DNA of 64,000 nt from an uncultured Acidobacteriota bacterium (GTDB lineage: Bacteria; Acidobacteriota; Thermoanaerobaculia; UBA5066; Gp7-AA6), in assembly GCA_963764715.1 (NCBI GenBank), contig CAVXTP010000023.1, forward strand, positions 24,085-88,084, in the 5' to 3' direction. Below the pieces are notes generated by a model. It was not told the DNA's origin. It did no database searches and worked only from the letters and a program-made list of their open reading frames with translations. The position numbers were made by a program, and so were the translations under genes. Shown here piece by piece: positions 46,653 through 63,433 of this stretch (position 1 is its first letter; the number at the start of each line of letters is the position of its first letter).

Positions 46653-48182
46653 TCAGCCGGCGAAAAGGCCCTCCGAAGGGGCGACCGAGGCTCCGGAAGC
46701 CTCGGAGCGGAGGTACTCGTCGATCGCGGCGGCGGCCTTGCGCCCGTGGCCCATGGCCAGGATGACCGTCGAGGCGCCAGCCACGATGTCGCCACCGGCG
46801 AAGACGCCGCGGCGGGTCGTCATCATCGTCTTCTCGTCGACGACCAGCGTGCCATGCCGGGTCGTCGTCAGGCCGGCCGTGGTCTTCGGGATGAGCGGGT
46901 TGGGGCCGTTGCCGATCGCCTCGATGACGATCTCGACCGGGAGCTCCTCGAAGGCCCCCTCGATCGGCACGGGGCGGCGCCGGCCCTTGTCGTCCGGCTC
47001 TCCGAGCTCGCACCTCTGCACCTTGAGCGCGCGGACCCATCCGTCGGAGCCGCCGACGATCTCGACGGGCGCGCACAGCATCCGGAACTCGACGCCCTCC
47101 TGCTCCGCGTGGTGCACCTCTTCGAGGCGCGCCGGCATCTCCGCGCGGGAACGCCGATAGACGAGGTACACGTGCTTGGCCCCGAGGCGCAGGGCCGACC
47201 GCGCGGCGTCCATCGCGACGTTGCCGCCGCCGAGGACCGCCACGTTGTCGCGCCGGAGGACCGGCGTGTCTTCCACGGGGAACCGGTACGCGCCCATCAG
47301 GTTCGCGCGCGTCAGGTACTCGTTGGCCGAGTAGACGCCGTTGAGGTCCTCGCCCGGGACGTTGACGAAGTAGGGCAGCCCGGCGCCGGTGGCCACGTAG
47401 ACGGCGTCGAAGCCCTCGTCGAAGAGGTCGTCGATCGTGAACGTCTGGCCGACGATGGTGTCGAACTCGAACCGGACGCCCATCTTCGACAGGTTGTCGA
47501 CTTCGGCCTGCACGATGTCCTTGGGAAGCCGGAACTCCGGGATCCCGTAGACGAGGACGCCGCCGGCCTTGTGGAAGGCCTCGAAGACGACCGCCTCGTG
47601 GCCGAGGCGCCGCAGGTCTCCCGCGCAGGTCAGGCCCGACGGGCCCGCGCCGATCACGGCGACGCGCCGGCCGGTCGCCGCGCCGACCGGCGGCAGCTCG
47701 ACGCCGCCCTCCTCGCGCTCCCAGTCGGCCAGGAACGCCTCGATCTTGCCGACCGACACCGCGAATCCGAGGTCCTTGTGGACCTTGGCCACCATGCAGT
47801 TCTCCTGGCACTGGCTCTCCTGCGGGCAGACGCGCCCGCAGATCGCGGGCAGGAGGTTGGTTTCCTTGATGAGCCGGATCGCGCTCCGGAAGTCGCCCTC
47901 GGCCACGAGCTTCAGGAAGCCCGGCACGTCGACGCCGACGGGGCATCCCGAGACGCACGGCTCGTTCTTGCACGAGAGGCAGCGCACGGCCTCGGCGCGG
48001 GCCTGCGCCGGCGTGTAGGCGAACGGGACCTCGCGGATGTTGCGCACCCGCTCGGCGGGATCCTGCTCGGCCCAGAACACCTTGGGAAGCTGGCCCCGCT
48101 GTTTGGGGGTCAGGGCGTGGCGGCCCTCGATGCGCGTCGCGAGCTCTTCGGGGGTCGGCTGGATCCGGATCTCGTCGGACAT
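46653..48182 (-). CDS. nfnB: NfnB/SudA-like (GltD-like) NADPH-dependent oxidoreductase
   Basis: CLSC..PCVSGCP, CGRVCPQESQC, GAGPSG, YGIPEFRLP, GGGNVAMD, FAGGD. Confidence 0.85.
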   Translation of the reverse strand: MSDEIRIQPTPEELATRIEGRHALTPKQRGQLPKVFWAEQDPAERVRNIREVPFAYTPAQARAEAVRCLSCKNEPCVSGCPVGVDVPGFLKLVAEGDFRSAIRLIKETNLLPAICGRVCPQESQCQENCMVAKVHKDLGFAVSVGKIEAFLADWEREEGGVELPPVGAATGRRVAVIGAGPSGLTCAGDLRRLGHEAVVFEAFHKAGGVLVYGIPEFRLPKDIVQAEVDNLSKMGVRFEFDTIVGQTFTIDDLFDEGFDAVYVATGAGLPYFVNVPGEDLNGVYSANEYLTRANLMGAYRFPVEDTPVLRRDNVAVLGGGNVAMDAARSALRLGAKHVYLVYRRSRAEMPARLEEVHHAEQEGVEFRMLCAPVEIVGGSDGWVRALKVQRCELGEPDDKGRRRPVPIEGAFEELPVEIVIEAIGNGPNPLIPKTTAGLTTTRHGTLVVDEKTMMTTRRGVFAGGDIVAGASTVILAMGHGRKAAAAIDEYLRSEASGASVAPSEGLFAG

Positions 48183-49093
48183 CAGGCTTCGGCCTCCGAG
48201 GCGGCGGCGGGCGCCTCCAACCGGCACGTGTGGTTCTTCTCCCGGTAGCGCGCGAGGCTCGCGGCCTCTTCCGGCTTGTACATGGCCTGGCGGCGCATCA
48301 TGCCGTCGAAGTCGACGCGGTGGCCGTCGAACTCGGGCCCGTCGACGCAGACGTACCGCGCCGTGCCGTCGACCGTGACGCGGCAGCCGCCGCACATCCC
48401 GGTGCCGTCGACCATGATCGTGTTCAGGCTGACGAGGGTCGGCACGGCATAGGGCTCGGTCGTCTTCGCGCAGAACTTCATCATCAGCGGCGGACCGATC
48501 GCGATCGCGAGGTCGACGTCCTCGCCGCGGGACCGGCGCGATTCGATCGCCTCCTTCAGTACGTCGGTGACGAAGCCCTTGCGGCCGGACGAGCCGTCGT
48601 CGGTGCAGACGAGGAGCTCGTCCGAGGCCTCGCCGAGCCGGTCCTCGAACACGAGGAGGTCCCGGCGGCGGGCGCCGAGGACCGTGACGACCCGGTGGCC
48701 GGCCTCGCGGAAGGCCCGCGCGATCGGGAGCATCGGCGCGGCGCCGATCCCGCCCGCGACGCAGGCCACGGTCCCGCGGAAGCCCTCGTCCTTGCCGGGA
48801 ACGCCGATGTGGGTCGGGTTGCCGAGTGGGCCGGCGACGTTCGCGAAGTCGTCGCCCTCCTGGAACTCCTCGGTCATCTCGATCGTCGTCTTGCCGACGG
48901 CCTGGACGACGAGGGTGATCGTCCCGGCCGACCGGTCCACGTCCGCGATCGTCAGGGGGATCCGCTCGGAGCTCGAGTGCGGCCGCACCATGACGAACTG
49001 GCCCGCGCGGTGGCGCCGGGCCACGCGCGGCGCCTCGACCTCGAAGAGGCTGACGTTTTCTCCCAGGGGCTTCTTGACCAGGATCCGGAACAC
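48182..49093 (-). CDS. nfnA: NfnA/SudB-like FAD/NAD-binding [2Fe-2S] subunit
   Basis: ERIPLTI, GPLG, AGGIG, MVDGTGMCGGCR, CVDGPEF; GTG 49093 after GAGGTG. Confidence 0.87.
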   Translation of the reverse strand: MFRILVKKPLGENVSLFEVEAPRVARRHRAGQFVMVRPHSSSERIPLTIADVDRSAGTITLVVQAVGKTTIEMTEEFQEGDDFANVAGPLGNPTHIGVPGKDEGFRGTVACVAGGIGAAPMLPIARAFREAGHRVVTVLGARRRDLLVFEDRLGEASDELLVCTDDGSSGRKGFVTDVLKEAIESRRSRGEDVDLAIAIGPPLMMKFCAKTTEPYAVPTLVSLNTIMVDGTGMCGGCRVTVDGTARYVCVDGPEFDGHRVDFDGMMRRQAMYKPEEAASLARYREKNHTCRLEAPAAASEAEA

Positions 49094-49110
49094 GGGCTTC
49101 ACCTCGCTTG

Positions 49111-49989
49111 TCAGAATGCCGGGGCGAACGCGGCGAGGATCTCGGCCGTGCTCGTGACTTCGCCGACCGCGCGGGCCTTCTTCCGGACCTCGTCCATGCG
49201 CTCGACGAGCGACGGCTGCCGCACCTCGTAGAGGACGCCGGTCGTGAGGACGTCCTCCTCGCGCGTGTAGCGCAGGGCGGCGGCCCGGTCGGTCACGTCG
49301 TGGTCCGCCGGGAGGAACGCCTGTTTCGCCTTGAGGATCTTGAACTGGTCGTCGCCCCGCCACGTCACGCACGGGGACATCACGTTCAGGAACGCGAAGC
49401 CGCGGTGTTCCATCGCGCGGGTCATGAGGTCCACGAGCGTCTTCGGATCGCCCGAGAAGCCGCGGCCGACCCACGTCGCGCCGAAGGAGATCGCGAGCTC
49501 GCAGGGGTCCACGGACGGCTCGGGGTTTCCCCAGAACGTCGACTTGGTCTTGTCTCCCGCCGGCGTCGTCGGCGCGGCCTGGCCCTTCGTCAGCCCGTAG
49601 ATCTCGTTGTCCATCATGAAGTACGCGATGTCGAGGTTGCGCCGCGCGGCGTGCAGGAAATGGTTGCCGCCGATCGCGATGCCGTCGCCGTCGCCGCCGA
49701 CGGCGATGACGTTCAACTCCGGCCGCGCGAGCTTGACCCCGCTGGCGAGGGTCAGCGCCCGGCCGTGGACCCCGTTGAACCCGAAGGTCTCCACGTATCC
49801 CGGCAGGCGCGACGAGCAGCCGATGCCCGAGATGACCACGGTGTTCCACGGCTCGAGCTGGAGCTTCGCCATGGCGCGGTGGAGCGAGGCCAGGGCGCCG
49901 AAGTCGCCGCAGCCGGCGCACCAGACGGGCTTCAGGTCCGATTTGTAGTCCGACGGCTGGAAGGTCGGGAGCTCGGCGACCGTGCTCAT
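49111..49989 (-). CDS. 2-oxoacid:ferredoxin oxidoreductase beta subunit (substrate unresolved)
   Basis: WCAGCG, SGIGCS, HGR, GGDGD...NEIYGLTKGQ TPP motif. Confidence 0.92.
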   Translation of the reverse strand: MSTVAELPTFQPSDYKSDLKPVWCAGCGDFGALASLHRAMAKLQLEPWNTVVISGIGCSSRLPGYVETFGFNGVHGRALTLASGVKLARPELNVIAVGGDGDGIAIGGNHFLHAARRNLDIAYFMMDNEIYGLTKGQAAPTTPAGDKTKSTFWGNPEPSVDPCELAISFGATWVGRGFSGDPKTLVDLMTRAMEHRGFAFLNVMSPCVTWRGDDQFKILKAKQAFLPADHDVTDRAAALRYTREEDVLTTGVLYEVRQPSLVERMDEVRKKARAVGEVTSTAEILAAFAPAF

Positions 49990-51764
49990 ACGGCCACCGC
50001 TTCCCGCGCCGGCAGGGCCCGCGCCCTCTCGATTCCGGCCTCGACCTCGGCCACCGTCAGATCCTTTCCGCCAGACCGCTTGAGCACGTGGGTGCGCCCG
50101 GGCGGCAGATCCAGGAACGTCCGCAGGTACTTGTAGAACTGCGCCGTGTACGAGAGCTCGACGATCAGAAGGTCCCCGACGCTCGAAAGGAACTCCTCGA
50201 AATCCCGCTTGGGGAAGGGATAGAGCATCTGCGGAACGAACGCCGCGACCCTTTCTCCACGCGCGGTCGCCGCGGCGACGGCCTCCTGGACCGGCCCCTT
50301 GGACGAGCCCCAGCACAGCACTCCGACGTCGGCGCGCTCCGGGCCGAACCGCCGGAACGAATGGTAGCGGTCCCGGATCGGCCACATCTTCCGGTAGCGC
50401 TTGGCGTTCATCGTCTCGTGCGTGAGGAAGAGGGAGTTGGGCCGTCCCTCCGCGTCGTGCTCGAGGCCGTTGGTCTGGTACATCCCCTTCTTCGTGCCGG
50501 GGATGCTCATCGGCGAGACGCCGTTCGGCGTGTCCCGGTAGCGCTCGTAGTTTTCGAGCTCCTCCGGCGTCGGCTGGACGCGCTCGCGCACCGGGTGCTG
50601 CAGGGCGCCGGCCGAGATCGTCTCCTTGCGCTGCGACACGGCCTGGTCCGACATGACGAGGACCGGGACCTGGAACTCCTCGGAGATGTTGAAGGCCTCG
50701 ACGGTCGCGTGGAAGCAGTCCTCGACGTCGGCGCAGGCCAGCACGACCCGGGGCGCGTCGCCGTGGGACCCGAAGAGCGCCTGGAGCAGGTCGGACTGCT
50801 CGCTCTTGGTCGGGTTCCCGGTCGACGGCCCGCCCCGCTGCACGTCGATGATGACGACCGGCACCTCGGCCATCGAGGCGAGACCCAGCATCTCGGTCAT
50901 CAGCGAAAGGCCGGGGCCGGAGGTGGCGGTCATGGACTTGACGCCGGCGAAGGACGCGCCGATGACGGCGCCGATCGCCGCGAGCTCGTCCTCCGTCTGG
51001 AGGAGGGAGCCGCCGGCGCGCGGCATCCACTCCGCGAGGAAGTGGAGGATCTCGGACGAAGGCGTGATCGGGTAGCCGGCGAAGAAGCGGCAGCCCGCGT
51101 GGAGGGCGCCGATCGCCGCGGCCTCGTTTCCGGACATCAACAGGCGCGGCGCCGAGGCCGTGTAGTCGAGCCGGCGGGAGGAAAGGACCTCGCCGGCGGA
51201 CGCCGCGAACTCGCGTCCGGCGTCGAACGCGCGGGCGTTGGCGGCGAGCACGGCCTCCTTCTTTCGGCCGAACCGGCGCGCGAGCGCGCGCCTCAGGGTC
51301 TCCGGCGGAAGCCCGAGAATCTCGCCGAGCAGTCCCAGGGTCACGACGTTGATCGCGCCCGGCGTTCCGGCGGACGCTTTCGAGAGGTCGGCCAGCGGGA
51401 CCGGAACCCAGCTCAGGTTCTCTCCGCCGACGAGGCCCAGACTCTCGGCGGACGGCTGATCTTCCGAGGCCTCGTAGAGGACGAGGGCGTCGGGCGCGAC
51501 GCTGATCTCGCCCCGGAACCGGTCGAAGTCCGCCCAGCGGAAGACCACGAGGACGTCGACCGCGTCCCCCGGAGCCGAAATCGCGTCCGCGGCGATGCGC
51601 ACCGCGCAGGACGACTCGCCGCCCCGGATCTGGGGGCCGTAGGCCTCCGTCTTGATCACGTGGAGGCCCTCCTTCGCCGCGACCTGGGCGACGAGATCCC
51701 CCAGGGTCATCACGCCGTCGCCACCCGAGCCCACCACCGTGATCGTCACGTCCCTGGTCGTCAT
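49986..51764 (-). CDS. 2-oxoacid:ferredoxin oxidoreductase alpha subunit (gamma-alpha fusion)
   Basis: GSGGDG, IRGGES, YPITP, EDE, TSGPG, QRGGPSTG. Confidence 0.93.
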   Translation of the reverse strand: MTTRDVTITVVGSGGDGVMTLGDLVAQVAAKEGLHVIKTEAYGPQIRGGESSCAVRIAADAISAPGDAVDVLVVFRWADFDRFRGEISVAPDALVLYEASEDQPSAESLGLVGGENLSWVPVPLADLSKASAGTPGAINVVTLGLLGEILGLPPETLRRALARRFGRKKEAVLAANARAFDAGREFAASAGEVLSSRRLDYTASAPRLLMSGNEAAAIGALHAGCRFFAGYPITPSSEILHFLAEWMPRAGGSLLQTEDELAAIGAVIGASFAGVKSMTATSGPGLSLMTEMLGLASMAEVPVVIIDVQRGGPSTGNPTKSEQSDLLQALFGSHGDAPRVVLACADVEDCFHATVEAFNISEEFQVPVLVMSDQAVSQRKETISAGALQHPVRERVQPTPEELENYERYRDTPNGVSPMSIPGTKKGMYQTNGLEHDAEGRPNSLFLTHETMNAKRYRKMWPIRDRYHSFRRFGPERADVGVLCWGSSKGPVQEAVAAATARGERVAAFVPQMLYPFPKRDFEEFLSSVGDLLIVELSYTAQFYKYLRTFLDLPPGRTHVLKRSGGKDLTVAEVEAGIERARALPAREAVAV

Positions 51765-52502: not shown

Positions 52503-53765
52503 ATGGGTTCCCCCGCGGTGCCACTTCTCCGACGCCGGCGGAGCCTCCGGATCGCCGTCGCTGCTGTCTTTGCGGTCGCTCTCGCCGCGGCCGCACCGGC
52601 GGGGCCGCGCATCGTCGCGGTCGGCGACGTGCACGGCGACCTCGCGGCGTTCCGCAAGATCCTCGCGGACGCCGGAGTCGTCGACGCGACGGGCGGCTGG
52701 ACGGGAGGCGACGCCGTGCTGGTGCAGGTCGGGGACCTGATCGACCGCGGACCGAGCATGCGGGGAACGCTCGACTTCGCCATGGCGCTGGAGCAGACGG
52801 CCGCGAAGGGAGGAGGGCGCGCCGTTTTGCTGCTCGGCAACCACGAGATCCTGAACCTCACCGGCGATCTGCGCTACGTCACGGCCGGCAACTACGCCGA
52901 GTTCGCCGACGCCGGATCGGAGAAACGGCGCGAGGACGCCTGGGTCCAGGTGCGCGATCTGCGGAAGCGGCGGGCCCGCGAGCTCGGGCAACCCGAGCCG
53001 TCCACGGGAGCCGAGGCGCGCAAGGCCTGGCTCGATTCGCACCCGCCGGGCTTCCTCGAGCACCAGGAGGCGTTCGGCCCCGGCGGCACGTACGGCCGCT
53101 GGCTGCGCGCCCGCCCGTCGGTCGTCGTCCTGCAGCAGATCGCGTTCATGCACGGAGGACTCTCCCCGGCCCTTTCGGGAGTGTCCCTCGAAGAGATCGA
53201 CAAGAGGGTGCGCGAAGACCTCGCGACGTTCGACCGCGACCGGGACCTCTTCGTGTCCGAGGGGCTGATCCTTCCGTTCTTCGACATCCAGGAGACGTTC
53301 CGCGCGGTCCGCGAAGCGCTCGACACGCTTTCGGCGTCCGCGAAGGACGCGGAACGGCGGAAGATCTACGAGCACTTCCTCGACTGGGGGAGCTGGACGA
53401 TGAATTCCTCCGACGGACCCCTCTGGTTCCGGGGCTACGGCCGGTGGAGCGACGCCGAGGGCGAGGCCGAGATGCCGCGGCTCCTGGCGGCGGCCGGGGT
53501 CGAGCACTTCGTCGTCGGCCACACGGTGCAGGAGGACGGCCGCATCCGCGTCCGCTTCGGCGGCGCCGCGTTCCTGATCGACAGCGGGATGCTCACGTCC
53601 TACGTCCCCGGCGGCCGGGCCTCGGCGCTCGAGTTCGTCGACGGCGTCGCGAGCGCGATCTATGCCGGCGAGCCGCGCCGGTTGATCTGGGAGCCGGCGC
53701 GCAAGGCGGCCGCCTTCGCGCAACCGGGTGCGCGGGGCCACGCGACGGGGGAGGCGGTGCGATGA
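52503..53765 (+). CDS. Exported metallophosphoesterase (PPP/Shewanella-like phosphatase)
   Basis: GDVHG, GDLIDRG, GNHE, HGG, GHT, IDSG; signal peptide; TAGAAT 8 nt before ATG. Confidence 0.9.
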   Translation: MGSPAVPLLRRRRSLRIAVAAVFAVALAAAAPAGPRIVAVGDVHGDLAAFRKILADAGVVDATGGWTGGDAVLVQVGDLIDRGPSMRGTLDFAMALEQTAAKGGGRAVLLLGNHEILNLTGDLRYVTAGNYAEFADAGSEKRREDAWVQVRDLRKRRARELGQPEPSTGAEARKAWLDSHPPGFLEHQEAFGPGGTYGRWLRARPSVVVLQQIAFMHGGLSPALSGVSLEEIDKRVREDLATFDRDRDLFVSEGLILPFFDIQETFRAVREALDTLSASAKDAERRKIYEHFLDWGSWTMNSSDGPLWFRGYGRWSDAEGEAEMPRLLAAAGVEHFVVGHTVQEDGRIRVRFGGAAFLIDSGMLTSYVPGGRASALEFVDGVASAIYAGEPRRLIWEPARKAAAFAQPGARGHATGEAVR

Positions 53766-56563
53766 GATCGAACCCGCTCGCACGGCTCTTCAACCTCGAG
53801 GCCGGAGACGGGCGCCGCGGCACGCTGCTCTTCTTCTATCTCCTCCTGATCATCACCTGCTACCAGCTCGGCAAGACCGCGCGGGACGCGCTGTTCCTGA
53901 GCGTCTTCAAGGCCTCGAAGCTTCCCTACGCGGACATGGCGATCGCGCTGTCGGTCGGCGTGGTGATCGCGGCCTACGTGACGATCGGCCGCCGCGTCAC
54001 GCTCCGCAACCTTCTCGTCGGCTGCCTGCTGCTCTTCGCGGCCCTGCAGGTCGGCTTCTGGTACCTGGCGAAATTCCGGCCGGAGCTGACCTGGCAGTAT
54101 CCCGTGTTCTACATCTGGGTCGGCATTCTCGGCGTCATCGCGCCGACCCAGGTCTGGACGCTCGCCAACTACCTGTTGACGACACGCGAGGCCAAGCGGA
54201 TCTTCGGCCTGGTCGGCGCGGGCGGCATCAGCGGCTGGATCGTCTCCGGCCTTCTCGCCGAGAAGCTCGCGAAGACCAAAGGCCTCGGCACCGAGAGCCT
54301 GCCCCTCGCGATGGCGGTCGCCCTGCTCGGATGCGCGGTGATCGTGGTGGTTCTCTGGCGCGAGCGGGGCGCGGCCCAGCCGGCGGGCGCCGCGCCGCGC
54401 GCCGAGTCCTCGGCGAAGAGCCTGCGGGAGAGCATGGCCGTCGTCTTCTCCTCGCCGTACCTGATCTCGATCGCGTCCCTCATCACCCTCTCCTCCATCG
54501 CGACCTGCTTCGCCGGCTGGCAGTTCAAGGCGATCGCCAAGGCCGCGTATCCCGACAAGAACGCGCTGACCGCGTTCTTCGGGCAGTTCAACTTCTGGGC
54601 GGGCCTGGCCTGCCTCGCGCTTCAGCTGCTGCTGACGTCGCGGTTCCTTCGCCGCTTCGGACTGGGTCCCGCCCTGCTGATGGTGCCGCTGGGGCTCTTC
54701 GCGAGCGAGCTCGGCGTCTGGATGTTCGGCACGCTGGCTGCGGCGATTCTCCTGAAGGGCGGGGATTCGGTCGTGCGCTATTCGCTCGACAAGTCTTCGG
54801 TCGAGCTGCTCTACCTGCCGATTTCCCCGGAGATCAAGCTCCAGGCGAAATCCGCGATCGACACCTTCATCTGGCGCCTGGGCGACGGTCTTGCCGGGTT
54901 CACGCTCGCGATCTTCACCGATCAGCTCAACTGGTCGGCCCGAAGGGTCTCGCTCGTCAATTTCGTCTTCATCGGCGGCTGGATCACGGCCGCCGTCATG
55001 GCGCGCCGACGGTATGCGGGCACCCTGCTCGACAGCCTCCGCCAGCGGCGGCTCGACGCCGAGCGGCAGCTCTCCCCGGTTCTCGACAGGTCCACGGCCG
55101 ACATCCTCGCGACACAGCTCGCCTCGCCCGATCCCCAGCAGGTCCTCTACGCGCTCGAGATCTTCGGCGCGTCCCAGCACCCGCCGGCGCATCCGGGCGT
55201 GCGCGACCTGCTCCATCACGAGTCGCCCGCCGTGCGGCGGCGCGCCCTGGAGCTCCTCGACGCGGCCGGCGACCTCTGGGTCCTGCCGCGCGTCGAGGAA
55301 ATGCTGCGCGACCCGGACGGGGACGTGCGGTCGGCGGCCCTGCTGTTCCTGGATCACCACGCGCCGGCGGATCCCCTGATGCGGGTCCAGAAGCTCGAGG
55401 ACTTCGAGGACGTGTCGGTCGCCTCCGGGATCGTCACGTTCCTCGCGCGCAGCGGGGACGGGGAGCGTCTCCCCGAAGCGCGGATCGTGATGGACCGGAT
55501 GATCGCCGAGAGCGGGGAGGCGGGAAAGCGCGCGCGACTCGAGGCCGCGAGCCTCCTCGGAATCGTGGGCGAGGGCTTCGACGACCAGCTCGACGCGCTG
55601 CTCTCCGACGAGGACTCGGATGTCGTGCGAGCGGCCGTGCGCGCGGCGGGGAAGCTTCGCAATCGGCGGGTGGCGCCGACGCTGATCGGTCTGCTCGGCG
55701 ACGCGCGGGTGCGGGACGAGGCGGCGGACGCGCTCGTCGCGATGGGCGACCGGGTCCTCGGAGCCATGCGCGATCAGTTGACCGACGGGAACGCGCCTCT
55801 CTCGGGCCGCCTCGAAATCCCCGCCGTCCTGGCCCGCATCGGAGGGAGCGGCGCCGCGAGCGCCCTCGAGGAGAACCTGCTCGAGAGCGAGCCGGAGCTG
55901 CGCTTCCGCACGATCTGCGCCCTCAACGACCTGCGCAAGGAGCAATCGGCGGCCGTGATCGATCCGGTCCGCCTTCGCGCGGCGCTCGGCTTCGAGATGA
56001 TGCTCCACTGCCGCACGAACCAGATCCTCTCGGTCGCCGGACAGGCGCGGGCCGCGGGGCCCGCAGCGGCGTCCGCGACGGAGGTCCTCCGGCGGCTCGA
56101 GGCGAGCCAGGAGCAGGAGATCGAGCGCATCTTCCGGCTCCTCTCCCTGCTCTACCCGGACACCGACTTCCGCAACGCCCACTACGGGCTGCGGTCGAGC
56201 GACGTGACGGCGCGCGATCACGCCATCGAGTTCCTCGATCTCGCCCTCGACCGCGACATGCGCAAGACCCTCGTGCCGCTGCTCGATCCGACGGCGTCCC
56301 TCGACCAGCGCGTCCTTCCGATCCTGACGCGCACGGGGCTCGAGGCGCCGACGGCCGCGGAGCTCGTCGCCGCGCTGGTCGAGAGCGACGACCCCTGGCT
56401 CAAGGCCTGCGGCATCTCGTCCGTCGGGTCCCTCGACATGACCGATCTCGCCTTCCACGTCGACGCCTGCCTCGACGCCGAGGACGAGCTCCTGCGGGAG
56501 GCCGCGCGCGCGGCGAAGAAGCGGCTGACGGACGCGGCGAAGGAGCGGCGGGCGATCCGTTGA
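53762..56563 (+). CDS. Npt1/Npt2 (TLC, ATP/ADP translocase)-like transporter fused to HEAT repeats
   Basis: About 12 TM segments with KTARDALFL, REAKRIFG, RYSLDK..ELLYLP, AKSAID...RLGD; Leu/Ala-rich helical repeats follow. Confidence 0.82.
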   Translation: MRSNPLARLFNLEAGDGRRGTLLFFYLLLIITCYQLGKTARDALFLSVFKASKLPYADMAIALSVGVVIAAYVTIGRRVTLRNLLVGCLLLFAALQVGFWYLAKFRPELTWQYPVFYIWVGILGVIAPTQVWTLANYLLTTREAKRIFGLVGAGGISGWIVSGLLAEKLAKTKGLGTESLPLAMAVALLGCAVIVVVLWRERGAAQPAGAAPRAESSAKSLRESMAVVFSSPYLISIASLITLSSIATCFAGWQFKAIAKAAYPDKNALTAFFGQFNFWAGLACLALQLLLTSRFLRRFGLGPALLMVPLGLFASELGVWMFGTLAAAILLKGGDSVVRYSLDKSSVELLYLPISPEIKLQAKSAIDTFIWRLGDGLAGFTLAIFTDQLNWSARRVSLVNFVFIGGWITAAVMARRRYAGTLLDSLRQRRLDAERQLSPVLDRSTADILATQLASPDPQQVLYALEIFGASQHPPAHPGVRDLLHHESPAVRRRALELLDAAGDLWVLPRVEEMLRDPDGDVRSAALLFLDHHAPADPLMRVQKLEDFEDVSVASGIVTFLARSGDGERLPEARIVMDRMIAESGEAGKRARLEAASLLGIVGEGFDDQLDALLSDEDSDVVRAAVRAAGKLRNRRVAPTLIGLLGDARVRDEAADALVAMGDRVLGAMRDQLTDGNAPLSGRLEIPAVLARIGGSGAASALEENLLESEPELRFRTICALNDLRKEQSAAVIDPVRLRAALGFEMMLHCRTNQILSVAGQARAAGPAAASATEVLRRLEASQEQEIERIFRLLSLLYPDTDFRNAHYGLRSSDVTARDHAIEFLDLALDRDMRKTLVPLLDPTASLDQRVLPILTRTGLEAPTAAELVAALVESDDPWLKACGISSVGSLDMTDLAFHVDACLDAEDELLREAARAAKKRLTDAAKERRAIR

Positions 56564-56578
56564 CGCGCGGAGCCGCGG

Positions 56579-57493
56579 CTACGGGGCCGGGGCCTCCTCC
56601 GTGTACGTGTACAGGACCTTGTCCTCGCCGCGCTCGGCGATGAGCTTGTCGAGGTGCTGCACGAGCAGGGCGCGCCGCTTGAAGAGCGCGTCGAGCTCGT
56701 AGTCCGAAAGGTCCTCCTTCAGCTGCGCGCGCACGGCGGCCTCGTCGAGCGCCTTCATCTTCTGGTACAGGCCGCGCTCGCACTGGTTGATCGCGTCGGG
56801 CCTCTGGAGGTTCGGGTTCCGGCGGAAGGCGCGGGTGTGGTCGATCATCCAGATCTTCCAGTCCGGCGTGATGATCAGGTTGCCGCTGTTCCGGTCGGTG
56901 TTGTAGATGAGCGCGTCGAACGTATTGATCATCTGCAGCTGCTTGTTCCAGCGCTTTAGGTCGGGCGGCTGGATGTTCTTCTCCTTCATCGACTTCTGGG
57001 TCATGGCGTTCTCGACCCAGATCTGCATGCTGCCGCTCTTGTGGTTGAGCTTGCGCAGCGTGGCCGGCGGGACGTTGTCGAGTCCGAGCATGCGGCTGAG
57101 CTTGTAAGCGGCCGGTTCGTAGATGTAGCTGTCGCGGAAGTAGAGACCGTCGCGGCCGCCGCCGAAGCTCGCCGTCGTCGACTCCTCGTTGACGTCGCGG
57201 AAGATGGCGTCGGCGCGCACACCGTCCTTCTCGAGCAGGACCTTGGTGGGGAACGTGACCCCTCCGGCGAAGCGTTTTTCCGACTTCACCTCCGCGGTGG
57301 CGAGAAACGCGAGCAGCTCGGCGTCGGAAGCGAACGGCAGCGGCTTGCCCTCCGGGTCGGTCCAGTGCACCCCGCCCCCGGCGCGCGGCGGCTCGGGCGC
57401 GGGCGTCACGGCGGCTTCCTGCGCGGCGAGCGCTCCGGCGAAGGCGAAGGCTCCGGCGAGGAGCAGGCCCAGGGGATGACGCCGTCCGATCAT
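56579..57493 (-). CDS. Exported atypical kinase-fold protein (PI4K type II/Fam20C-like)
   Basis: Signal peptide; GGVT, AIFR, EPAAYKLSRMLGLDNVP, GSMQ, DALIYNTDRNSGN, IDH; AGGAGG before ATG 57493. Confidence 0.78.
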   Translation of the reverse strand: MIGRRHPLGLLLAGAFAFAGALAAQEAAVTPAPEPPRAGGGVHWTDPEGKPLPFASDAELLAFLATAEVKSEKRFAGGVTFPTKVLLEKDGVRADAIFRDVNEESTTASFGGGRDGLYFRDSYIYEPAAYKLSRMLGLDNVPPATLRKLNHKSGSMQIWVENAMTQKSMKEKNIQPPDLKRWNKQLQMINTFDALIYNTDRNSGNLIITPDWKIWMIDHTRAFRRNPNLQRPDAINQCERGLYQKMKALDEAAVRAQLKEDLSDYELDALFKRRALLVQHLDKLIAERGEDKVLYTYTEEAPAP

Positions 57494-57692: not shown

Positions 57693-59078
57693 ATGGCTAC
57701 CAACGAAAAGCGGGTCGTCATCCTGGGCGCCGCAGGCCGCGATTTCCACGATTTCAACACCGTCTTCCGGGACGATCCCGGGACGCGCGTGGTCGCCTTC
57801 ACGGCGACGCAGATTCCCGGGATCGCCGGGCGGCGCTATCCGGCGGTCCTCGCGGGGCCGCGCTACGCGTCGGGCATCCCGATACTTCCCGAGGAGGACC
57901 TCGGGCGGCTGATCCGGGAGGAGAAGGTCGACACGTGCGTCTTCTCGTATTCGGACGTGACGCACGAGCACGTGATGCACCTGGCGTCGCAGGCCGTCGC
58001 CCTCGGCGCGGACTTCCTGCTGCTCTCGGCCCGCCGCACCATGCTTCCGGCGAAAGTCCCGGTCATCGCCGTGACCGCCGTGCGGACCGGCGCGGGCAAG
58101 AGCCAGACGACGCGCTATCTCTCGAACATCCTGAAGAAGCTCGGGAAGCGGGTCGTCGCGATCCGGCACCCGATGCCCTACGGGGACCTGGCGGAGCAGA
58201 TCTGCCAGCGCTTCGCCACTTACGCCGACCTCGACCGCGAGAAGTGCACCATCGAGGAGCGCGAAGAGTACGAACCCCACATCGACAACGGGTTCGTCGT
58301 CTACGCCGGGGTGGACTACGGGGAGATCCTCGCCCGCGCCGAGCAGGAGGCCGACGTCATCCTCTGGGACGGCGGCAACAACGACCTGCCGTTCTACGTC
58401 CCGGCGCTGCACATCTGCGTCGCGGACCCCCATCGGGCCGGGCACGAGACCTCGTACCATCCGGGCGAGGCGAACTTCCGGCGCGCCGACGTCATCGTCC
58501 TCAACAAGTGCGACACGGCCAACGCCGCCAGCGTCGCCGCGGTCGAGGCGACGGCGGCGCGGCTGAACCCGCGGGCCCGGGTCCTGCGGGCGGACTCGCC
58601 GGTCGCGATCGAGCACCCGGAGTGGGTCGCCGGCAAGAAGGTGCTGGTCGTCGAGGACGGGCCGACCCTCACGCACGGAGGGATGCGCTTCGGCGCGGGA
58701 GTCGTCGCGGCGAGACAGGCGGGCGCGGCCGAGTTCGTGGACCCGAGCCCGTACGCCGTCGGCTCCATCCGGGACACCTATGCGAAGTACCCGAACGCCG
58801 TCGGCATCCTGCCGGCGATGGGTTACGGCGAGGCCCAGGTCGCCGAGCTCGCGGAGACGATCCGGCGGACGCCCTGCGACGCCGTGGTCATCGGAACGCC
58901 GATCGATCTGCGGCGCGTTCTCCGGATCGACCGGCCCGCCGTCCGGGTGCACTACGACCTGCGGGAGCAATCGCCCGGCGCGCTCGAGTCGGAGGTCCGG
59001 AGGGTGCTCGGGGAGCCGGAGCCCGGCGTGTCAGCGGTCGGGAGTCTTCTCGAACACGAAGAAGTGCTGCACCGGTAG
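57693..59078 (+). CDS. cDPG synthase-like P-loop protein, probable arginine synthetase (ArcE-like)
   Basis: GAAGRDFH, FTATQIP, RTGAGKS, RHPMPYG, TIEEREEYE, WDGGNND, EDGPTLTHG. Confidence 0.8.
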   Translation: MATNEKRVVILGAAGRDFHDFNTVFRDDPGTRVVAFTATQIPGIAGRRYPAVLAGPRYASGIPILPEEDLGRLIREEKVDTCVFSYSDVTHEHVMHLASQAVALGADFLLLSARRTMLPAKVPVIAVTAVRTGAGKSQTTRYLSNILKKLGKRVVAIRHPMPYGDLAEQICQRFATYADLDREKCTIEEREEYEPHIDNGFVVYAGVDYGEILARAEQEADVILWDGGNNDLPFYVPALHICVADPHRAGHETSYHPGEANFRRADVIVLNKCDTANAASVAAVEATAARLNPRARVLRADSPVAIEHPEWVAGKKVLVVEDGPTLTHGGMRFGAGVVAARQAGAAEFVDPSPYAVGSIRDTYAKYPNAVGILPAMGYGEAQVAELAETIRRTPCDAVVIGTPIDLRRVLRIDRPAVRVHYDLREQSPGALESEVRRVLGEPEPGVSAVGSLLEHEEVLHR

Positions 59079-59759
59079 AAACTCGTGGAGCTTGACGAGT
59101 CGGAAGCCGGCCGGCTCCCACTCGGCGAGGACCTGTTTCGTCGACATGCGGTGCTCCTCCCGGACGTGGACGGCGGTCAGCCCCTCGAGGCGGTACTCCA
59201 CGAGCGCGACCTTGCCGTCGGTCTTCAGGGCTTCGCGCATCCGCGCGAGCGTCGCCTTCGGCTGCTGGAGCTCGTGGTAGACGTCGACGAGCAGGACCCA
59301 GTCGAGTGATCCCGGCGGCAGCTTCGGGTCGTCGTTCGTCCCGAGAATCGGCACGACGTTCCGGACGCCCGCCTTCTCCATGTTCTCCTTCAGCCGGGAG
59401 AGCATCTCGGGCTGGATGTCGACGGCGTACACGCGCCCGGAGGGGCCGACGGCCTTCGCGAGGCGCCGCGTGAAGTAGCCGGTTCCCGCGCCGAGGTCGG
59501 CGACGACGTCGCCCTTCTTCAGGCCCATGCTCCGGACGATCTCGTCGGGCCGCTGCTCCTCGTCGCGGCCGGGCCGCTCGAGCCAGTCCGCCCCCGACGC
59601 GCCCATGACCGGCGCGGGACGCCGCTCGTCGCTCGTCGGGGCCTGGGCGGGGGCGATCGCCGCCGCGCCGAGGAGAAGGAGCAGGAAGGGCAGAGCGAGG
59701 ATCCGCCGCACGGGGCGGGAGGGACTCTTTCCGGGAACGCCCGGGTTCACGTCGGCCAT
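59031..59759 (-). CDS. Class I SAM-dependent methyltransferase with signal-peptide-like N-terminus
   Basis: VADLGAGTG, AVDIQ, DVYHE. Confidence 0.87.
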   Translation of the reverse strand: MADVNPGVPGKSPSRPVRRILALPFLLLLLGAAAIAPAQAPTSDERRPAPVMGASGADWLERPGRDEEQRPDEIVRSMGLKKGDVVADLGAGTGYFTRRLAKAVGPSGRVYAVDIQPEMLSRLKENMEKAGVRNVVPILGTNDDPKLPPGSLDWVLLVDVYHELQQPKATLARMREALKTDGKVALVEYRLEGLTAVHVREEHRMSTKQVLAEWEPAGFRLVKLHEFLPVQHFFVFEKTPDR

Positions 59760-59864
59760 CGCATCGACTCCCGATAACAGCGGTCCGGCTCCGGACCTTC
59801 GCGATTTTTCACGGTGGGGGGACGAGCGCGGAGTCGTTGCGGACGAAGGGCTCGAACGAAAGCG

Positions 59865-60419
59865 TCAAGCGCCCTTCAGCGTTCGGCGAAGAGCGCGTGC
59901 GCGCGATGACCCGTAGCGGAAGAGCTTGTGGCACTCGTCGCGAAGAAACCCTCCCGTGACCGGGATGGGGTGGTTTCCCTTTTCGAAGACGAGCCGGCAG
60001 GGGATGAGACAGGCCCGCCACTTGTAGTCGTCCGTGCCCCGCCTGACCCCGAATTCGGCGATGTCCTCCTGGGAGACGCCGTAGACGACCGCGCCGATCC
60101 TCGACCACACGCAGGCGCCGGCGCACATGGCGCAGGGCTCGTGCGTCGAGTAGAGGACAAAGTCCGGCAGGTAACGGCCGTAGCCGCTCGAGACGTACTT
60201 GAGCGTCTCCAGCTCCACGTGCTTGATGCTCGAGCCCGACGTCTTGACCCGGTTTCCCGCGCTGGCGATGACCACTTCGGCCCCGCGCGTCACGCGCGTG
60301 ATGACCGCGCCGATCGGGTAGTCGCCCCGGTCCCCGGCGCGCTTGGCCTCCGAGACCGCGAGCTCCATGAACTTCCGGCGCGGCTTGTAGGAGGGGAGGA
60401 TCATGGGAAAAGAATACAT
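59865..60419 (-). CDS. Nucleoside deaminase (TadA/guanine deaminase-like)
   Basis: PIGAVI, HVE, EPCAMC zinc motif. Confidence 0.85.
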   Translation of the reverse strand: MYSFPMILPSYKPRRKFMELAVSEAKRAGDRGDYPIGAVITRVTRGAEVVIASAGNRVKTSGSSIKHVELETLKYVSSGYGRYLPDFVLYSTHEPCAMCAGACVWSRIGAVVYGVSQEDIAEFGVRRGTDDYKWRACLIPCRLVFEKGNHPIPVTGGFLRDECHKLFRYGSSRARALRRTLKGA

Positions 60420-60449
60420 GGGCCGGAGTGGCTCGCCGGTTCGCGATCC

Positions 60450-60908
60450 TCAGCCGCCGTCCAGCATCGTTCCCCGGCAGGTGGCGGCCCCGCAATGACA
60501 GGCGTACCGGCTCCGTCTCGAGCGCGAGGCGCCCTTCTCGATCTCGAGCGCGTAGTCGTACGTCAGCTCGGCGCGGGGCTGAATGTTCCGGATCGCCCGG
60601 ATCGAGACCGTGCCGTCGGACACCTCGGCCTCACAGTTCGGATCGCACGAATGGTTGATGAATCGCGCGTCGTTGCCGCCGACGGAGGCGTCGATGTAGA
60701 GGTCGCCCCCGGCGTGGAAGAGCAGCGTGTGGGGATCGTCCGCGGCCGCCTCGTCGTACCGGGCCTGGACGGCCTTCGACGTGAGGGCCTGGCCCGCGTA
60801 CTCGATCAAGTTCCGGCCCGCGCGGATGCGCCGCGTCGCAAAGACTCCGTAGCCGTGGATCGCGGAGCGCCGCTTCGCGAAGGACGGTCGGATTCGCCGG
60901 CGCGGCAT
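60450..60908 (-). CDS. SET-domain protein-lysine methyltransferase
   Basis: HGYGVFA, RFINHSCDPN, ELTYDY, post-SET CHCGAATC. Confidence 0.93.
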   Translation of the reverse strand: MPRRRIRPSFAKRRSAIHGYGVFATRRIRAGRNLIEYAGQALTSKAVQARYDEAAADDPHTLLFHAGGDLYIDASVGGNDARFINHSCDPNCEAEVSDGTVSIRAIRNIQPRAELTYDYALEIEKGASRSRRSRYACHCGAATCRGTMLDGG

Positions 60909-61459: not shown

Positions 61460-61500
61460 GCAGCATGATGCTTGGGTCGACGAAGGCAGGGAGGTCGGGG

Positions 61501-62217
61501 GTGGAAGACCGCTTGATGACGGTGAAGCAACTGGCCGCCTACCTGAGCGTCAACGACCGGACCGTACTGAAGCTGGTGGCCGACGGCGCGGTTCCGGGCG
61601 TGAAGGTCGGCAGCCAGTGGCGCTTCCGCAAGGCGATGATCGATACCTGGCTGGACGATCAGATGCTGGGGGTGTTGCCCCCGTATCTCGGGCCGCCGAC
61701 GGAAGGCTCGCCCCGCCGCATGCTGGATCTCGCGACGTGCTTTCAGCCCGATCACATCATCCCGGAGCTCATCGCCCACACCAGGAACGGGGTGATCGAA
61801 GAATTGTCCGGACTGGCGCACCGCCTCGGACTCGTCCGCGACAAGACGTGGTTCGTGGGGGCCTTGATTCAGCGGGAAAACGTGTTTCCGGGCGCCTTCG
61901 GAGGCGGGATCGCTTTCCTGCACACCCTTCGCCGCAACCCCGAGCAAATCGCCCGGCCGTTCATGGTGCTCGGCCGGTCCGTCGAGGGAGTCGAGTTCGA
62001 CGCGCTCGACGGAAAACCGACGCACCTCTTCTTCGTGTTGGGCCTGAAGTACGAGGAGCTGCATCTTCCCTGGCTCTTCAAGCTGTCGCAGATGCTGGCG
62101 CGTGAGCACGCGCTCGAGGACCTGCTCAAGGCTCCCGATACGACGGCTCTCTACGAAACACTCATTCAAGCGGAGCGGACCCTGGAGCCGGAGCTCTCCG
62201 CGAGGGGAGGCAAGTGA
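61501..62217 (+). CDS. Excisionase-type HTH fused to a PTS EIIA (Ntr/Fru-type) domain
   Basis: MTVKQLAAYL...KVGSQWRF; GIAFLH; FDALDGKP; GGAGG before GTG 61501. Confidence 0.88.
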   Translation: MEDRLMTVKQLAAYLSVNDRTVLKLVADGAVPGVKVGSQWRFRKAMIDTWLDDQMLGVLPPYLGPPTEGSPRRMLDLATCFQPDHIIPELIAHTRNGVIEELSGLAHRLGLVRDKTWFVGALIQRENVFPGAFGGGIAFLHTLRRNPEQIARPFMVLGRSVEGVEFDALDGKPTHLFFVLGLKYEELHLPWLFKLSQMLAREHALEDLLKAPDTTALYETLIQAERTLEPELSARGGK

Positions 62218-62223
62218 GGAACG

Positions 62224-62580
62224 ATGGCGTCTGAGTTCTCTCCGAAGGCCGACGACTTCCAGGGAGTGGCGGATCGACCCGCGACGGCGGAGGTCCGTGG
62301 CGCTCACTGTGGCGGCTGCCACCTGAGACTCCTGCCGCAGCTTCTCCAACAGGTTCGTCGGAGCCAGGGCCTCGTGGGGTGCCCGCACTGCGGGCGCCTG
62401 CTTTTTCACGAGGACCCGGGGAAGCCGTCACTTCGGGGCGCGCCCGATGAAGGAACCCGTTCGACGCGTGCGTCGAGCTCCGGCCGCCGCGCGAGACGCC
62501 CCGCTTCGGGGAAGATCGCACCGGCAAGCGGCCGGGCTCCCGGGGCGGTCCGGTCCTCGCCCCCGACAGAGTCTCTCTGA
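62224..62580 (+). CDS. Stand-alone C4-type zinc-ribbon protein
   Basis: CGGCH-x-CPHCGRLLF; GAGG RBS; stop abuts the next ATG. Confidence 0.65.
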   Translation: MASEFSPKADDFQGVADRPATAEVRGAHCGGCHLRLLPQLLQQVRRSQGLVGCPHCGRLLFHEDPGKPSLRGAPDEGTRSTRASSSGRRARRPASGKIAPASGRAPGAVRSSPPTESL

Positions 62581-62581
62581 C

Positions 62582-63310
62582 ATGGGTTCGCAGGACAGGG
62601 AGGCGCGCGACGCCGGGGAGACGATGTCCGTCAGCGACGCCGTGCGCTATCTCTCGCTTTCGCCGACGACCGTCCGGCGCCTCGCCGGCGAAGTGCACGC
62701 CGTCCGCGTGGATGGGCGCTGGCGCCTGCGTGTCAGCGAGCTCGAAGAGTGGATCGCGAGGCGCCGGTCCGTCGAGCAGATTCCGGCCGAGCCCGTCAGT
62801 TACCCGGGCTGCGAGATCAGCCTTCATCCCTATCTCGACGTTCAAAACGTCTTCCTCGACGCGCCCCAGACCGAGGCCGAACCGTTGATCCGCGCCGCCT
62901 TTCGCCGCGCTCGCCTCGTGCGGGCCGAGAGCCCTGGACCGGCCGGGGACGAGTCGGCGAACGATCGGATCTGCCGGTCCGTCCTCGAGCGCGAGGCGCT
63001 TTCCAGCACGGCGTTCCATCCCGATGTCGCCTACCCGCATCCGAAGGACGAGGGCCGGCGCCTGCTCGGGGCGAACCAGATGCTCGTGGTTCGGGCGCTC
63101 CGACCGGTCGACTTTCACGACGCCTGCGGCCACCGGCCGAGACTCGCTTTCATCCTGCTGACCCAGTCGATCTCGGTCCAGCTCCTCTGGGAGGCTCGAC
63201 TGAGCTACCTCGTCCACAAGGAAGATCTGGTCCGGAGGCTGCTCGAGGCGCGCTCGGCCGGAGACGCCCACGAACTCTTCACCGGGACACCGGACGGGAC
63301 CGGGAGCTGA
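62582..63310 (+). CDS. Excisionase-type HTH fused to a PTS EIIA domain (paralogue 2)
   Basis: MSVSDAVRYL...RVDGRWR; REALSST...VAYPH. Confidence 0.82.
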   Translation: MGSQDREARDAGETMSVSDAVRYLSLSPTTVRRLAGEVHAVRVDGRWRLRVSELEEWIARRRSVEQIPAEPVSYPGCEISLHPYLDVQNVFLDAPQTEAEPLIRAAFRRARLVRAESPGPAGDESANDRICRSVLEREALSSTAFHPDVAYPHPKDEGRRLLGANQMLVVRALRPVDFHDACGHRPRLAFILLTQSISVQLLWEARLSYLVHKEDLVRRLLEARSAGDAHELFTGTPDGTGS

Positions 63311-63433
63311 TCCTGCTTCTTGCCGCCGCCTCGGGCACGCCAGGCCCCCGCCCCTCGTGCTGAGCCCCGCGCGAGCTCGGAAGGTCGCCCGGCCCGCGAT
63401 CTCCAGCGCCCTCGAGCCAGCGAGCTAGGTCCG

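Follow-up and report, generated by a model that had tools for sequence, protein, structure and literature searches.

The metazoan Fam20 family includes the Golgi casein kinase Fam20C, the xylosylkinase Fam20B and the pseudokinase Fam20A. These animal enzymes rely on a carrier to deliver ATP to the lumen. The textbook view of bacteria is that their periplasm lacks ATP, and energy-requiring steps in this compartment are thought to draw on inner-membrane energy. Carriers of the NTT type have been characterised in parasites and plastids, where they are importers or exchangers, according to the available portion of Major, Embley and Williams 2017 (PMC5381601). The same portion describes fusions of NTT and HEAT domains as a monophyletic group that is widespread in free-living bacteria and whose function is unknown. 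A review of the Fam20 family (PMC7948968) contains the word 'bacteria' once, in its reference list, and the terms 'prokaryot', 'HipA' and 'ATP transport' are absent from it; the available part of that review lists SidJ among its references. Literature searches, which covered listings and abstract openings, found no published account of a bacterial module of the kind described below.

The window, that is, the whole stretch of 64,000 nucleotides that was analysed, comes from a soil-type Acidobacteriota bacterium with a 70% G+C genome. It encodes an NTT-HEAT transporter between a metallophosphatase and a kinase-fold protein, here called KIN. The features of this locus are as follows.

52503..53765, plus strand: phosphatase gene, a predicted exported Shewanella-like (SLP/PPP-type) metallophosphatase of 420 aa
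53762..53765, plus strand: ATGA in which the phosphatase stop and the transporter start overlap (translational coupling), read directly
53762..55072, plus strand: NTT/TLC-type transporter domain, aa 1-437, with 12 predicted membrane helices
55094..56563, plus strand: C-terminal HEAT-repeat domain, aa 445-933 of the transporter protein, Pfam HEAT_2
56564..56578, no strand: 15 nt separating the convergent genes for the transporter and KIN, read directly
56579..57493, minus strand: KIN gene, a Fam20/PI4K-II-like kinase-fold protein of 304 aa, from structure model and family profile

Direct reading of the DNA bears out the gene layout proposed in the initial annotation, including the ATGA overlap, the convergent 15-nt gap and the location of all three genes. 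The transporter gene (53762-56563, plus strand) ends in a TGA codon at 56561-56563. The KIN gene, on the minus strand, has its stop codon at 56579-56581 and an ATG start at 57491-57493, which is preceded by GGAGG five nucleotides upstream on its own strand. All three genes are real; third codon positions are GC-rich in all three frames (0.86-0.92 where measured), as is typical of genuine genes in a 70% G+C genome. A search for RNA runs matching the 4991-base stretch listed none.

The initial annotation described KIN as a protein with a signal peptide and motifs like those of PI4K-II and Fam20 kinases. Structure prediction, fold search and profile comparison agree with this: the protein has a kinase fold that is closest to Fam20 and then to PI4K-II. 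With the AlphaFold2 model (pLDDT 80, pTM 0.78), the first 26 Foldseek ranks are taken by Fam20C, Fam20B and Fam20A, with the exception of ranks 24-25, which are two chains of PI4K-II alpha. E values for the top ranks lie between 2e-10 and 2e-8, with a TM score on the query of about 0.6. When the KIN family profile is compared with PDB sequences, Fam20 is the sole significant match among solved structures (E 1e-6 for Fam20A, 2e-5 for Fam20B and 2-4e-5 for Fam20C).

The window's KIN reaches no family cut-off in Pfam or NCBIfam, and Pfam Fam20C (PF06702) does not match it at E 0.1 or better. Its scores against Pfam FAM198 (13.6 bits, cut-off 25), PI3_PI4_kinase (16.3 bits, cut-off 27.1) and TIGR03843 (62.8 at E 3e-17, cut-off 172.4) are all too low for assignment. 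Among relatives, Pfam Fam20C matches 27 of 107 representatives at E 0.01 or better, and one tandem protein (P0004) exceeds its cut-off (29.4 vs 26.8). The Pfam family touched by most representatives at this threshold is PI3_PI4_kinase (52/107). At E 1e-30, the KIN family has 918 representatives in the library searched.

The helix-C glutamate, the catalytic aspartate and the metal-binding asparagine and aspartate are all present in KIN and align to those of Fam20. Conservation of the active site was counted in 153 domains, from 150 family representatives together with the window's own KIN. D121 and D218 are kept in every one of them, D200 in 152 and the helix-C glutamate, E126, in 126; N205 is kept in 147 and is replaced by Asp in the remaining six. 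In KIN an arginine takes the place of the lysine that binds ATP in Fam20 and PI4K-II, a change that the initial annotation overlooked: the beta-3 lysine of Fam20 ('FKP') aligns to R99. Among the same 153 domains this position holds Arg in 118, His in 22, Lys in nine and other residues in four. An arginine at the ATP-binding beta-3 position is unusual for an active kinase.

The phosphatase is a PPP-type enzyme preceded by an export-type N-terminus, much as the initial annotation had it. It has the features that mark PPP/SLP members: GDxHG, GDxxDRG and GNHE (here GDVHGD, GDLIDRG and GNHE), downstream His motifs and a Pfam Metallophos score above the cut-off (45.1 bits vs 21.5). Among solved proteins it comes nearest to the Shewanella cold-active protein-tyrosine phosphatases 2ZBM, 1V73 and 2Z72 (E 3e-27), and Rhizobiales-like phosphatase 2 is next. 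Residues D42, H44, D78, R82, N113, H114, H217 and H340 are invariant in all 41 module phosphatases compared. The best NCBIfam match is the nucleotide hydrolase ApaH (E 2.7e-8), and there is a weak match to bacterial polynucleotide kinase-phosphatase; both are far under cut-off.

The middle gene, an Npt/TLC-like transporter with a HEAT domain in the initial annotation, has Pfam TLC and HEAT_2 matches that both lie above cut-off. TLC scores 84.7 bits (cut-off 21) over aa 110-417, a match that spans profile positions 145-490 only. The NCBIfam NTP/NDP-exchanger model TIGR00769 gives 81.9, under its cut-off of 387.2, and phmmer matches Arabidopsis AtNTT1 (9J3J) at E 2.4e-18. In the AlphaFold2 model, 12 long helices precede residue 437, and Foldseek matches it best to NTT1 of Chlamydia and Arabidopsis (E 1e-10, TM 0.70-0.75 on target), with ATP- or ADP/Pi-bound NTT1 at the top and other MFS carriers ranking below (TM about 0.62). 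The signatures EAK[KR] and YSL..E..Y.P...K.K.AID align with AtNTT1. In the C-terminal part, HEAT_2 scores 70.2 bits (cut-off 27.7) in three stretches after aa 448, and the modelled domain is an all-helical repeat that resembles alphaRep and PP2A-A scaffolds. Because an even number of predicted helices (12) precedes it, the HEAT domain is placed on the cytoplasmic side of the membrane.

Both enzymes are predicted to leave the cytoplasm. Each begins with basic residues that lead into a hydrophobic segment, at about aa 1-32 in the phosphatase and about aa 1-24 (57422-57493) in KIN. A simple but strict rule based on this pattern was applied across the KIN family after 40 of 150 representatives had been excluded as truncated. 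Among the short forms, 45 of 61 show the pattern, as do 38 of 42 among the long forms, so that most relatives, like the two enzymes themselves, would be exported by this rule, as initially supposed. The phosphatase signal contains RRRR, which prompted the idea of twin-arginine export; the arginine pair is not conserved in all relatives.

Co-occurrence and fusion of the three families had been proposed as a check on their functional connection. In many genomes the three do occur together, and the phosphatase and KIN are also found fused. All three families are present in 19 of 20 loci around KIN matches in relatives, with differing flanking genes. Among 79 public KIN loci, the phosphatase lies within 6 kb in 42 and the carrier in 34. 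Where 5 kb is available on both sides (37 loci), KIN is accompanied by both partners in 20, by the phosphatase only in four, by the carrier only in none and by neither in 13. Partner-linked copies are scattered over the whole KIN tree. Their gene orders vary, with P for phosphatase, T for transporter and K for KIN: P-T followed by reversed K, P-K-T, T-P-K and T-T-P-K-K. At seven loci a signal peptide, the phosphatase and KIN are in one reading frame. Metallophos is found in 35 of 107 KIN representatives, and 45 of 150 representatives are at least 550 aa long, with KIN at the C-terminus.

The occurrence of the families is nested. Among 301 Acidobacteriota genomes, 75 have KIN and 137 have the carrier; every KIN genome, from 57 genera, also has the carrier, although these counts overstate independence because the sampled genomes are related. 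It is likewise present in all five KIN genomes whose titles name another phylum or give no classification. The phosphatase subtype is present in 65 of the 301 genomes, 64 of which have KIN, and 11 of the 75 KIN genomes lack it at E 1e-30. The carrier is more widespread. It is present in 62 of 226 KIN-negative genomes (one of which, G109, is flagged as unpublished), and only three of 20 carrier-centred loci hold KIN. A co-fold prediction of mature KIN and the membrane part of the transporter (aa 1-430), run without controls, scored 0.00 and speaks neither for nor against contact.

Among 99 loci, only two other families recur near the module, sensor histidine kinases or sigma-54 activators at 21 and Hanks-type Ser/Thr kinases at 18. 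Since both families are abundant in Acidobacteriota, they are treated as background. No nuclease, nucleotidase or binding-protein gene is recurrent among the module loci. The window's own flanks hold a POR/Nfn-like cluster, a CobW-like gene and a methyltransferase; these were excluded as module members because they are common to the nearest relatives only and are rearranged in one locus (L043).

Taken with the conserved active sites, fusion, synteny and nested occurrence, these folds and export-type N-termini are consistent with a single module that adds and removes phosphate outside the cytoplasm and is supplied by nucleotide exchange, a reading to which we give about even chances. Exported KIN, whose catalytic aspartate and metal-binding asparagine and aspartate are intact, would use a nucleotide, most likely ATP, to phosphorylate an extracytoplasmic target that could be a protein, a glycan or a lipid. 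The exported phosphatase beside it would strip the same phosphate or process the nucleotide product; erasing KIN's own mark is one of several roles compatible with the enzyme. The inner-membrane NTT-HEAT carrier would supply the nucleotide by exchange, with ATP moving out and ADP (plus phosphate) moving in. Kinase, phosphatase and carrier could then form a closed cycle that costs the cell no net nucleotide or phosphate. Donor, transport direction, substrate and any role of the HEAT domain in regulation are inferred. The grouping of the three genes suggests, short of proof, that some bacteria export ATP beyond the cytoplasm to drive phosphorylation there.

The initial annotation cast the three proteins as writer, eraser and fuel supply, with a HEAT domain that would gate transport; on this last point the model shows only where the domain lies, on the cytoplasmic side behind 12 helices. 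Of the four conditions named as refuting this scheme, three were examined, and it survived each: the genes co-occur, the enzymes have export-type N-termini and the protein has a kinase fold. The scheme is thus supported in part; the replaced beta-3 lysine and the presence of the carrier in genomes without KIN weigh against it. Its most complete form, in which diderm bacteria run a closed, ATP-driven periplasmic cycle, is tentative and on balance doubtful. Here the carrier would swap cytoplasmic ATP for periplasmic ADP and phosphate, a Fam20-like kinase would put a phosphate mark on envelope targets, a PPP phosphatase, fused or adjacent, would erase it, and the cytoplasmic HEAT domain would adjust the supply to the state of the cell. 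ATP in the periplasm could escape through porins, and a kinase fused to a phosphatase would run a futile cycle in the absence of regulation.

Other readings of the locus have to be weighed against a phosphorylation module. KIN may combine a kinase fold with other chemistry, acting as an AMPylase, as a nucleotidyl- or other group-transferase, or as a regulated binding module, while the carrier supplies a nucleotide or cofactor other than ATP as phosphate donor. SelO and SidJ are kinase-fold enzymes with non-kinase chemistry, and NTT carriers elsewhere move NAD, SAM and other nucleotides. The change of the beta-3 lysine to Arg or His in 140 of 153 KIN domains fits this reading, as does the pseudokinase Fam20A among the closest solved relatives. 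We nonetheless regard it as unlikely because the phosphate-transfer triad of D200, N205 and D218 is nearly invariant, unlike that of typical pseudokinases, and because its constant partner, a PPP-type phosphatase whose active site is intact, is easier to reconcile with phosphate as the mark than with AMP or glutamate. Rather unlikely, too, is a linkage without fuel supply, in which KIN and the phosphatase cooperate outside the cytoplasm, the carrier is tied to them only by shared regulation or envelope physiology, and KIN uses another donor or acts after release. The carrier is indeed common in genomes without KIN and often has a different place in the genome (KIN is missing from 17 of the 20 loci centred on the carrier), and in the window it converges with the KIN gene and is not co-transcribed with it. 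A loose association of this kind sits poorly with the total lack of KIN genomes without carrier (0/75, across 57 genera, and again 0/5 beyond the sampled set), with the failure of fully flanked loci to pair carrier and KIN without the phosphatase, and with an adjacency that is kept through several gene orders.

The locus might instead serve to scavenge nucleotides or phosphate. The carrier would then import nucleotides from outside, like the NTTs of intracellular bacteria, and the exported phosphoesterase and the kinase-like protein would prepare external nucleotides or the ends of nucleic acids for uptake by trimming or converting them. Import or exchange is what the available portion of PMC5381601 reports for characterised NTTs of parasites and plastids, and the sub-threshold ApaH and polynucleotide kinase-phosphatase matches point the same way. 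Yet an external kinase would still require a phosphate donor, which leaves the constant pairing of KIN with the carrier unexplained; the closest solved relative of the phosphatase is a protein-tyrosine phosphatase and not a nucleotidase; and the only recurrent neighbours are the sensor and Ser/Thr kinases, with none of the scavenging genes named above. Scavenging thus seems quite improbable.

The proposed phosphorylation module matters because the linkage of an exported kinase, an exported phosphatase and a relative of ATP/ADP carriers makes the idea of periplasmic ATP directly testable. If it is true, the periplasm is not ATP-free, and the Golgi-type secreted-kinase system gains a bacterial counterpart or ancestor. 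The finding would give NTT-HEAT proteins their first functional context and supply a bacterial relative of the animal Fam20 secretory kinases. It would also open a route to envelope regulation in the Acidobacteriota, a dominant yet little-studied soil phylum.

Each protein of the locus can be compared with a described system. The plastid and chlamydial ATP/ADP translocators NTT1 (PDB 9J3J-9J3O) are the best fold match for transporter aa 1-437 and have the same signature motifs, whereas the window's protein is only about 18-20% identical and carries an extra HEAT domain. Compared to parasite NTTs, the proposed exit of ATP from the cytoplasm would run in the opposite direction. By architecture, an NTT/TLC domain followed by a C-terminal HEAT domain, the transporter resembles the NTT-HEAT fusions of PMC5381601. 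Here the carrier is additionally tied to KIN by synteny and nested occurrence, and the available portion of that account makes no mention of exported kinase-like or phosphatase neighbours. The phosphatase has all PPP metal-binding and catalytic motifs in common with the Shewanella-like phosphatases (SLP; 1V73/2Z72). It differs from the solved Shewanella enzyme in two long insertions, at about aa 128-188 and 224-302, and module phosphatases, unlike the Shewanella SLP, are often fused to KIN.

KIN itself can be compared with two groups. Type II phosphatidylinositol 4-kinases form the second tier of its fold matches and are joined by the actinobacterial SCO1664 family (TIGR03843); both are cytoplasmic, and KIN scores under their cut-offs. 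Metazoan Fam20 is the best structural match. The two have in common an E-x-AA[YF] helix, VPP, a catalytic loop of the form [GN]xDR..x..N, the Asp that binds metal and a conserved Cys that follows the activation segment, as well as a signal peptide and a place of action outside the cytosol, which for KIN is predicted. KIN differs from Fam20 in its low identity (14-18%), the Arg in place of the beta-3 Lys, its single cysteine and its smaller size (about 260 aa when mature), and it is a bacterial protein with a phosphatase as its partner or fused to it.

The module consists of three genes, which encode a predicted exported Shewanella-like (SLP/PPP-type) metallophosphatase, an NTT/TLC transporter with a C-terminal HEAT domain (the carrier), and KIN, a predicted exported protein with a Fam20/PI4K-II-like kinase fold. 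The layout proposed in the initial annotation is borne out in its positions, start-stop overlap, intergenic gap and convergent orientation, as read from the sequence:

52503-53765, + strand, phosphatase, 420 aa
53762-56563, + strand, transporter, 933 aa; start codon and phosphatase stop overlap in ATGA
56579-57493, - strand, KIN, 304 aa; convergent with the transporter gene across a 15-nt gap

A GGAGG motif lies 5 nt ahead of the KIN ATG, on the strand of that gene. Each gene is present in a single copy in the host genome (4.36 Mb, 26 contigs, approximately 70% G+C). A literature search found no description of such a kinase-phosphatase-carrier module among titles and abstract openings.

KIN occurs in 21 of 36 other genomes of the same genus. 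Elsewhere in the order, where 24 genomes of other families were searched, it was found in one. All three families are found in 19 of 20 loci fetched from relatives, where flanking genes vary, and the remaining locus holds a phosphatase-KIN fusion alone. The KIN profile found 79 public loci, of which 42 have a phosphatase and 34 a carrier within 6 kb. For the 37 loci with 5 kb of sequence on both sides, both partners are present in 20, the phosphatase only in four, the carrier only in none, and neither in 13. The gene orders seen are phosphatase-transporter followed by a reversed KIN, phosphatase-KIN-transporter, transporter-phosphatase-KIN, and transporter-transporter-phosphatase-KIN-KIN. When 92 KIN domains are placed in a midpoint-rooted tree, copies linked to the partners appear to occupy most deep branches and solitary ones to represent local expansions.

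On the scale of whole genomes, occurrence is nested: the genomes with the phosphatase subtype fall within those with KIN, and these within the genomes with the carrier. Of 301 sampled Acidobacteriota genomes, 75, from 57 genera, have KIN and 137 have the carrier, including all 75 with KIN, counts that are not independent trials because the genomes are related. The carrier occurs without KIN in 62 genomes, one of which (G109) is flagged as unpublished. The phosphatase subtype, counted at E 1e-30 or better, is present in 65 genomes, 64 of them with KIN, and at this threshold is absent from 11 of the 75 KIN genomes. Five further KIN genomes, labeled in their contig titles as Latescibacterota, Gemmatimonadota, Polyangiaceae, Chondromyces and unclassified bacterium, all have the carrier.

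KIN has expanded to at least eight scored copies in some genomes (genomes G154, G273, G293, G307 and G312; loci L114, L089 and L090). At L114, a solitary KIN resides within an array of Hanks-type Ser/Thr kinases bearing extracytoplasmic domains (FGE-sulfatase, TPR, PD40).

No Pfam or NCBIfam model meets its curated cut-off for the window KIN. Weak matches below cut-off are to HipA_2, PI3_PI4_kinase, ABC1, FAM198, the SCO1664 family and Kdo kinase, and relatives are annotated as 'hypothetical protein' in public sources. A structure model built on 23 relatives (pLDDT 80, pTM 0.78) has its best matches in Fam20C, Fam20B and Fam20A (E 2e-10), followed by PI4K-II alpha; the three Fam20 proteins are also found on sequence by the KIN family profile (E 1e-6 to 4e-5). 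Among 1.84 billion cluster representatives, 6341 match the family at E 1e-3, and 918 still do so at the stricter E 1e-30. The family representative P0004 (671 aa) carries two KIN domains in tandem and is the one relative seen to exceed the Pfam Fam20C and HipA_2 cut-offs.

Across 153 KIN domains, the catalytic Asp (D200) is kept in 152, the metal-binding Asn (N205) in 147 with Asp in the remaining six, and both the metal-binding Asp (D218) and the conserved D121 in every domain. The helix-C Glu (E126) is kept in 126. R99 aligns with the Fam20 'FKP' lysine, and this position is Arg in 118 domains, His in 22, Lys in nine and another residue in four. The sole cysteine of the window KIN, C238 in a QCER motif, is invariant in 23 close relatives, is kept in 111 of the 153 domains, and aligns with a Cys conserved among Fam20A, Fam20B and Fam20C. 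Export-type N-termini appear from sequence to be the rule among KIN relatives. By a strict home-made N-terminus rule, 45 of 61 representatives of the short form have one, as do 38 of 42 of the long form (40 of 150 were left out as truncated), and many failures are visibly cut gene models.

The window phosphatase reaches Pfam Metallophos. It is assigned to the Shewanella-like members of the PPP group because its closest solved relatives are Shewanella cold-active protein-tyrosine phosphatases (E 3e-27); Rhizobiales-like phosphatase 2 is a more distant solved relative. Compared with the solved Shewanella enzyme, it has two long insertions. Residues D42, H44, D78, R82, N113, H114, H217 and H340 are invariant in all 41 module phosphatases. 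The N-terminus is basic and then hydrophobic, with the catalytic GDVHGD beginning at residue 41.

In seven relatives' loci, a single reading frame encodes a signal peptide, phosphatase and KIN. Metallophos is present in 35 of 107 KIN family representatives, and 45 of the top 150 are at least 550 aa long with a C-terminal KIN. All five long proteins among ten representatives scanned have an N-terminal Metallophos domain. Several genomes of the same genus (L033, L035, L042, L045, L048, L049) carry a second, phosphatase-fused KIN besides the convergent copy, located between phosphatase and carrier. The window's genome has the convergent KIN alone, and there the phosphatase gene runs straight into the carrier start. 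At L035, L036, L043 and L050, phosphatase, carrier or KIN matches are split into several pieces in different frames, reflecting either MAG assembly indels or decaying copies.

The transporter matches Pfam TLC and HEAT_2 and scores far under the cut-off of the NCBIfam NTP/NDP-exchanger model. Its AlphaFold2 model (pLDDT 79) has 12 long helices to residue 437, then helical repeats to the C-terminus. The best fold matches of the membrane part are ATP-bound Chlamydia NTT1 and ATP- or ADP/Pi-bound Arabidopsis NTT1 (TM 0.70-0.75 on target), above other MFS carriers. On sequence, Arabidopsis NTT1 is matched at E 2.4e-18, and the EAK[KR] and YSL..E..Y.P...K.K.AID signatures line up in the alignment. 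Given a count of 12 helices, the HEAT domain and the carrier N-terminus share one side of the membrane, which by the usual MFS/NTT topology is probably the cytoplasm. NTT-HEAT fusions are already described, in passages of PMC5381601, as widespread in free-living bacteria and of unknown function. Among 20 carrier-centered loci, KIN occurs in three, a phosphatase in three and a divergent pair of NTT-HEAT paralogs in eight (L130-L136 and L139, from other Acidobacteriota). These head-to-head paralogs share approximately 42-45% and 28-30% identity with the window's carrier, have no KIN beside them in seven of the eight loci, and may form a two-carrier system of their own.

The following genes surround the module:

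46653-48395, - strand, NfnB/GltD-like protein
48182-49921, - strand, NfnA-like flavoprotein
49986-51764, - strand, 2-oxoacid:ferredoxin oxidoreductase subunit
57693-59078, + strand, 461-aa protein divergent from KIN, with a partial CobW/HypB/UreG match (aa 240-298)
59031-59759, - strand, SAM methyltransferase
59865-60419, - strand, cytidine/dCMP-type deaminase
60450-60908, - strand, bacterial SET-domain protein
61465-62217, 62447-63310 and 63320-64000, + strand, array of three paralogs, in each of which an HTH_17 DNA-binding domain is fused to a PTS EIIA_2 domain

The upstream redox cluster (46653-51764) is ordinary energy metabolism with no link to the module. Among the fetched loci, the CobW-like neighbor adjoins the module elsewhere only in the nearest relative, L032. 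Next comes a run of small enzyme genes (59031-60908). The triple array of HTH_17-EIIA_2 regulators is unusual, and its third member continues past the window edge.

We give about an even chance to a mechanism in which the carrier would deliver nucleotide outside the cytoplasm, KIN would use it to phosphorylate a target there, and the phosphatase would undo this mark or else process the product. The nested occurrence is what would be expected if KIN depended on the carrier and the carrier also had roles apart from KIN; linkage of the genes without any fuel supply is rather unlikely. The modeled fold and the catalytic loop say that KIN is a putative active phosphotransferase, though the 'FKP' lysine position is altered, and some non-kinase chemistry on a kinase fold is an unlikely reading. 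Under the phosphorylation mechanism, hints to the KIN substrate class point to glycans (Fam20B, the weak Kdo-kinase match), lipids (PI4K-II) and proteins (the PPP partner). Nucleotide scavenging, with the carrier working as an importer, is quite improbable.

Plastid NTT1 exchanges ATP for ADP together with phosphate, in agreement with the title of a PDB entry, 'ADP/Pi bound AtNTT1'. Between them, a kinase and a phosphatase turn ATP into exactly ADP and phosphate, and therefore the trio could close a lossless cycle. A eukaryotic parallel to the bacterial module would be Fam20C, which acts in a lumen that is supplied with ATP by a dedicated antiporter.
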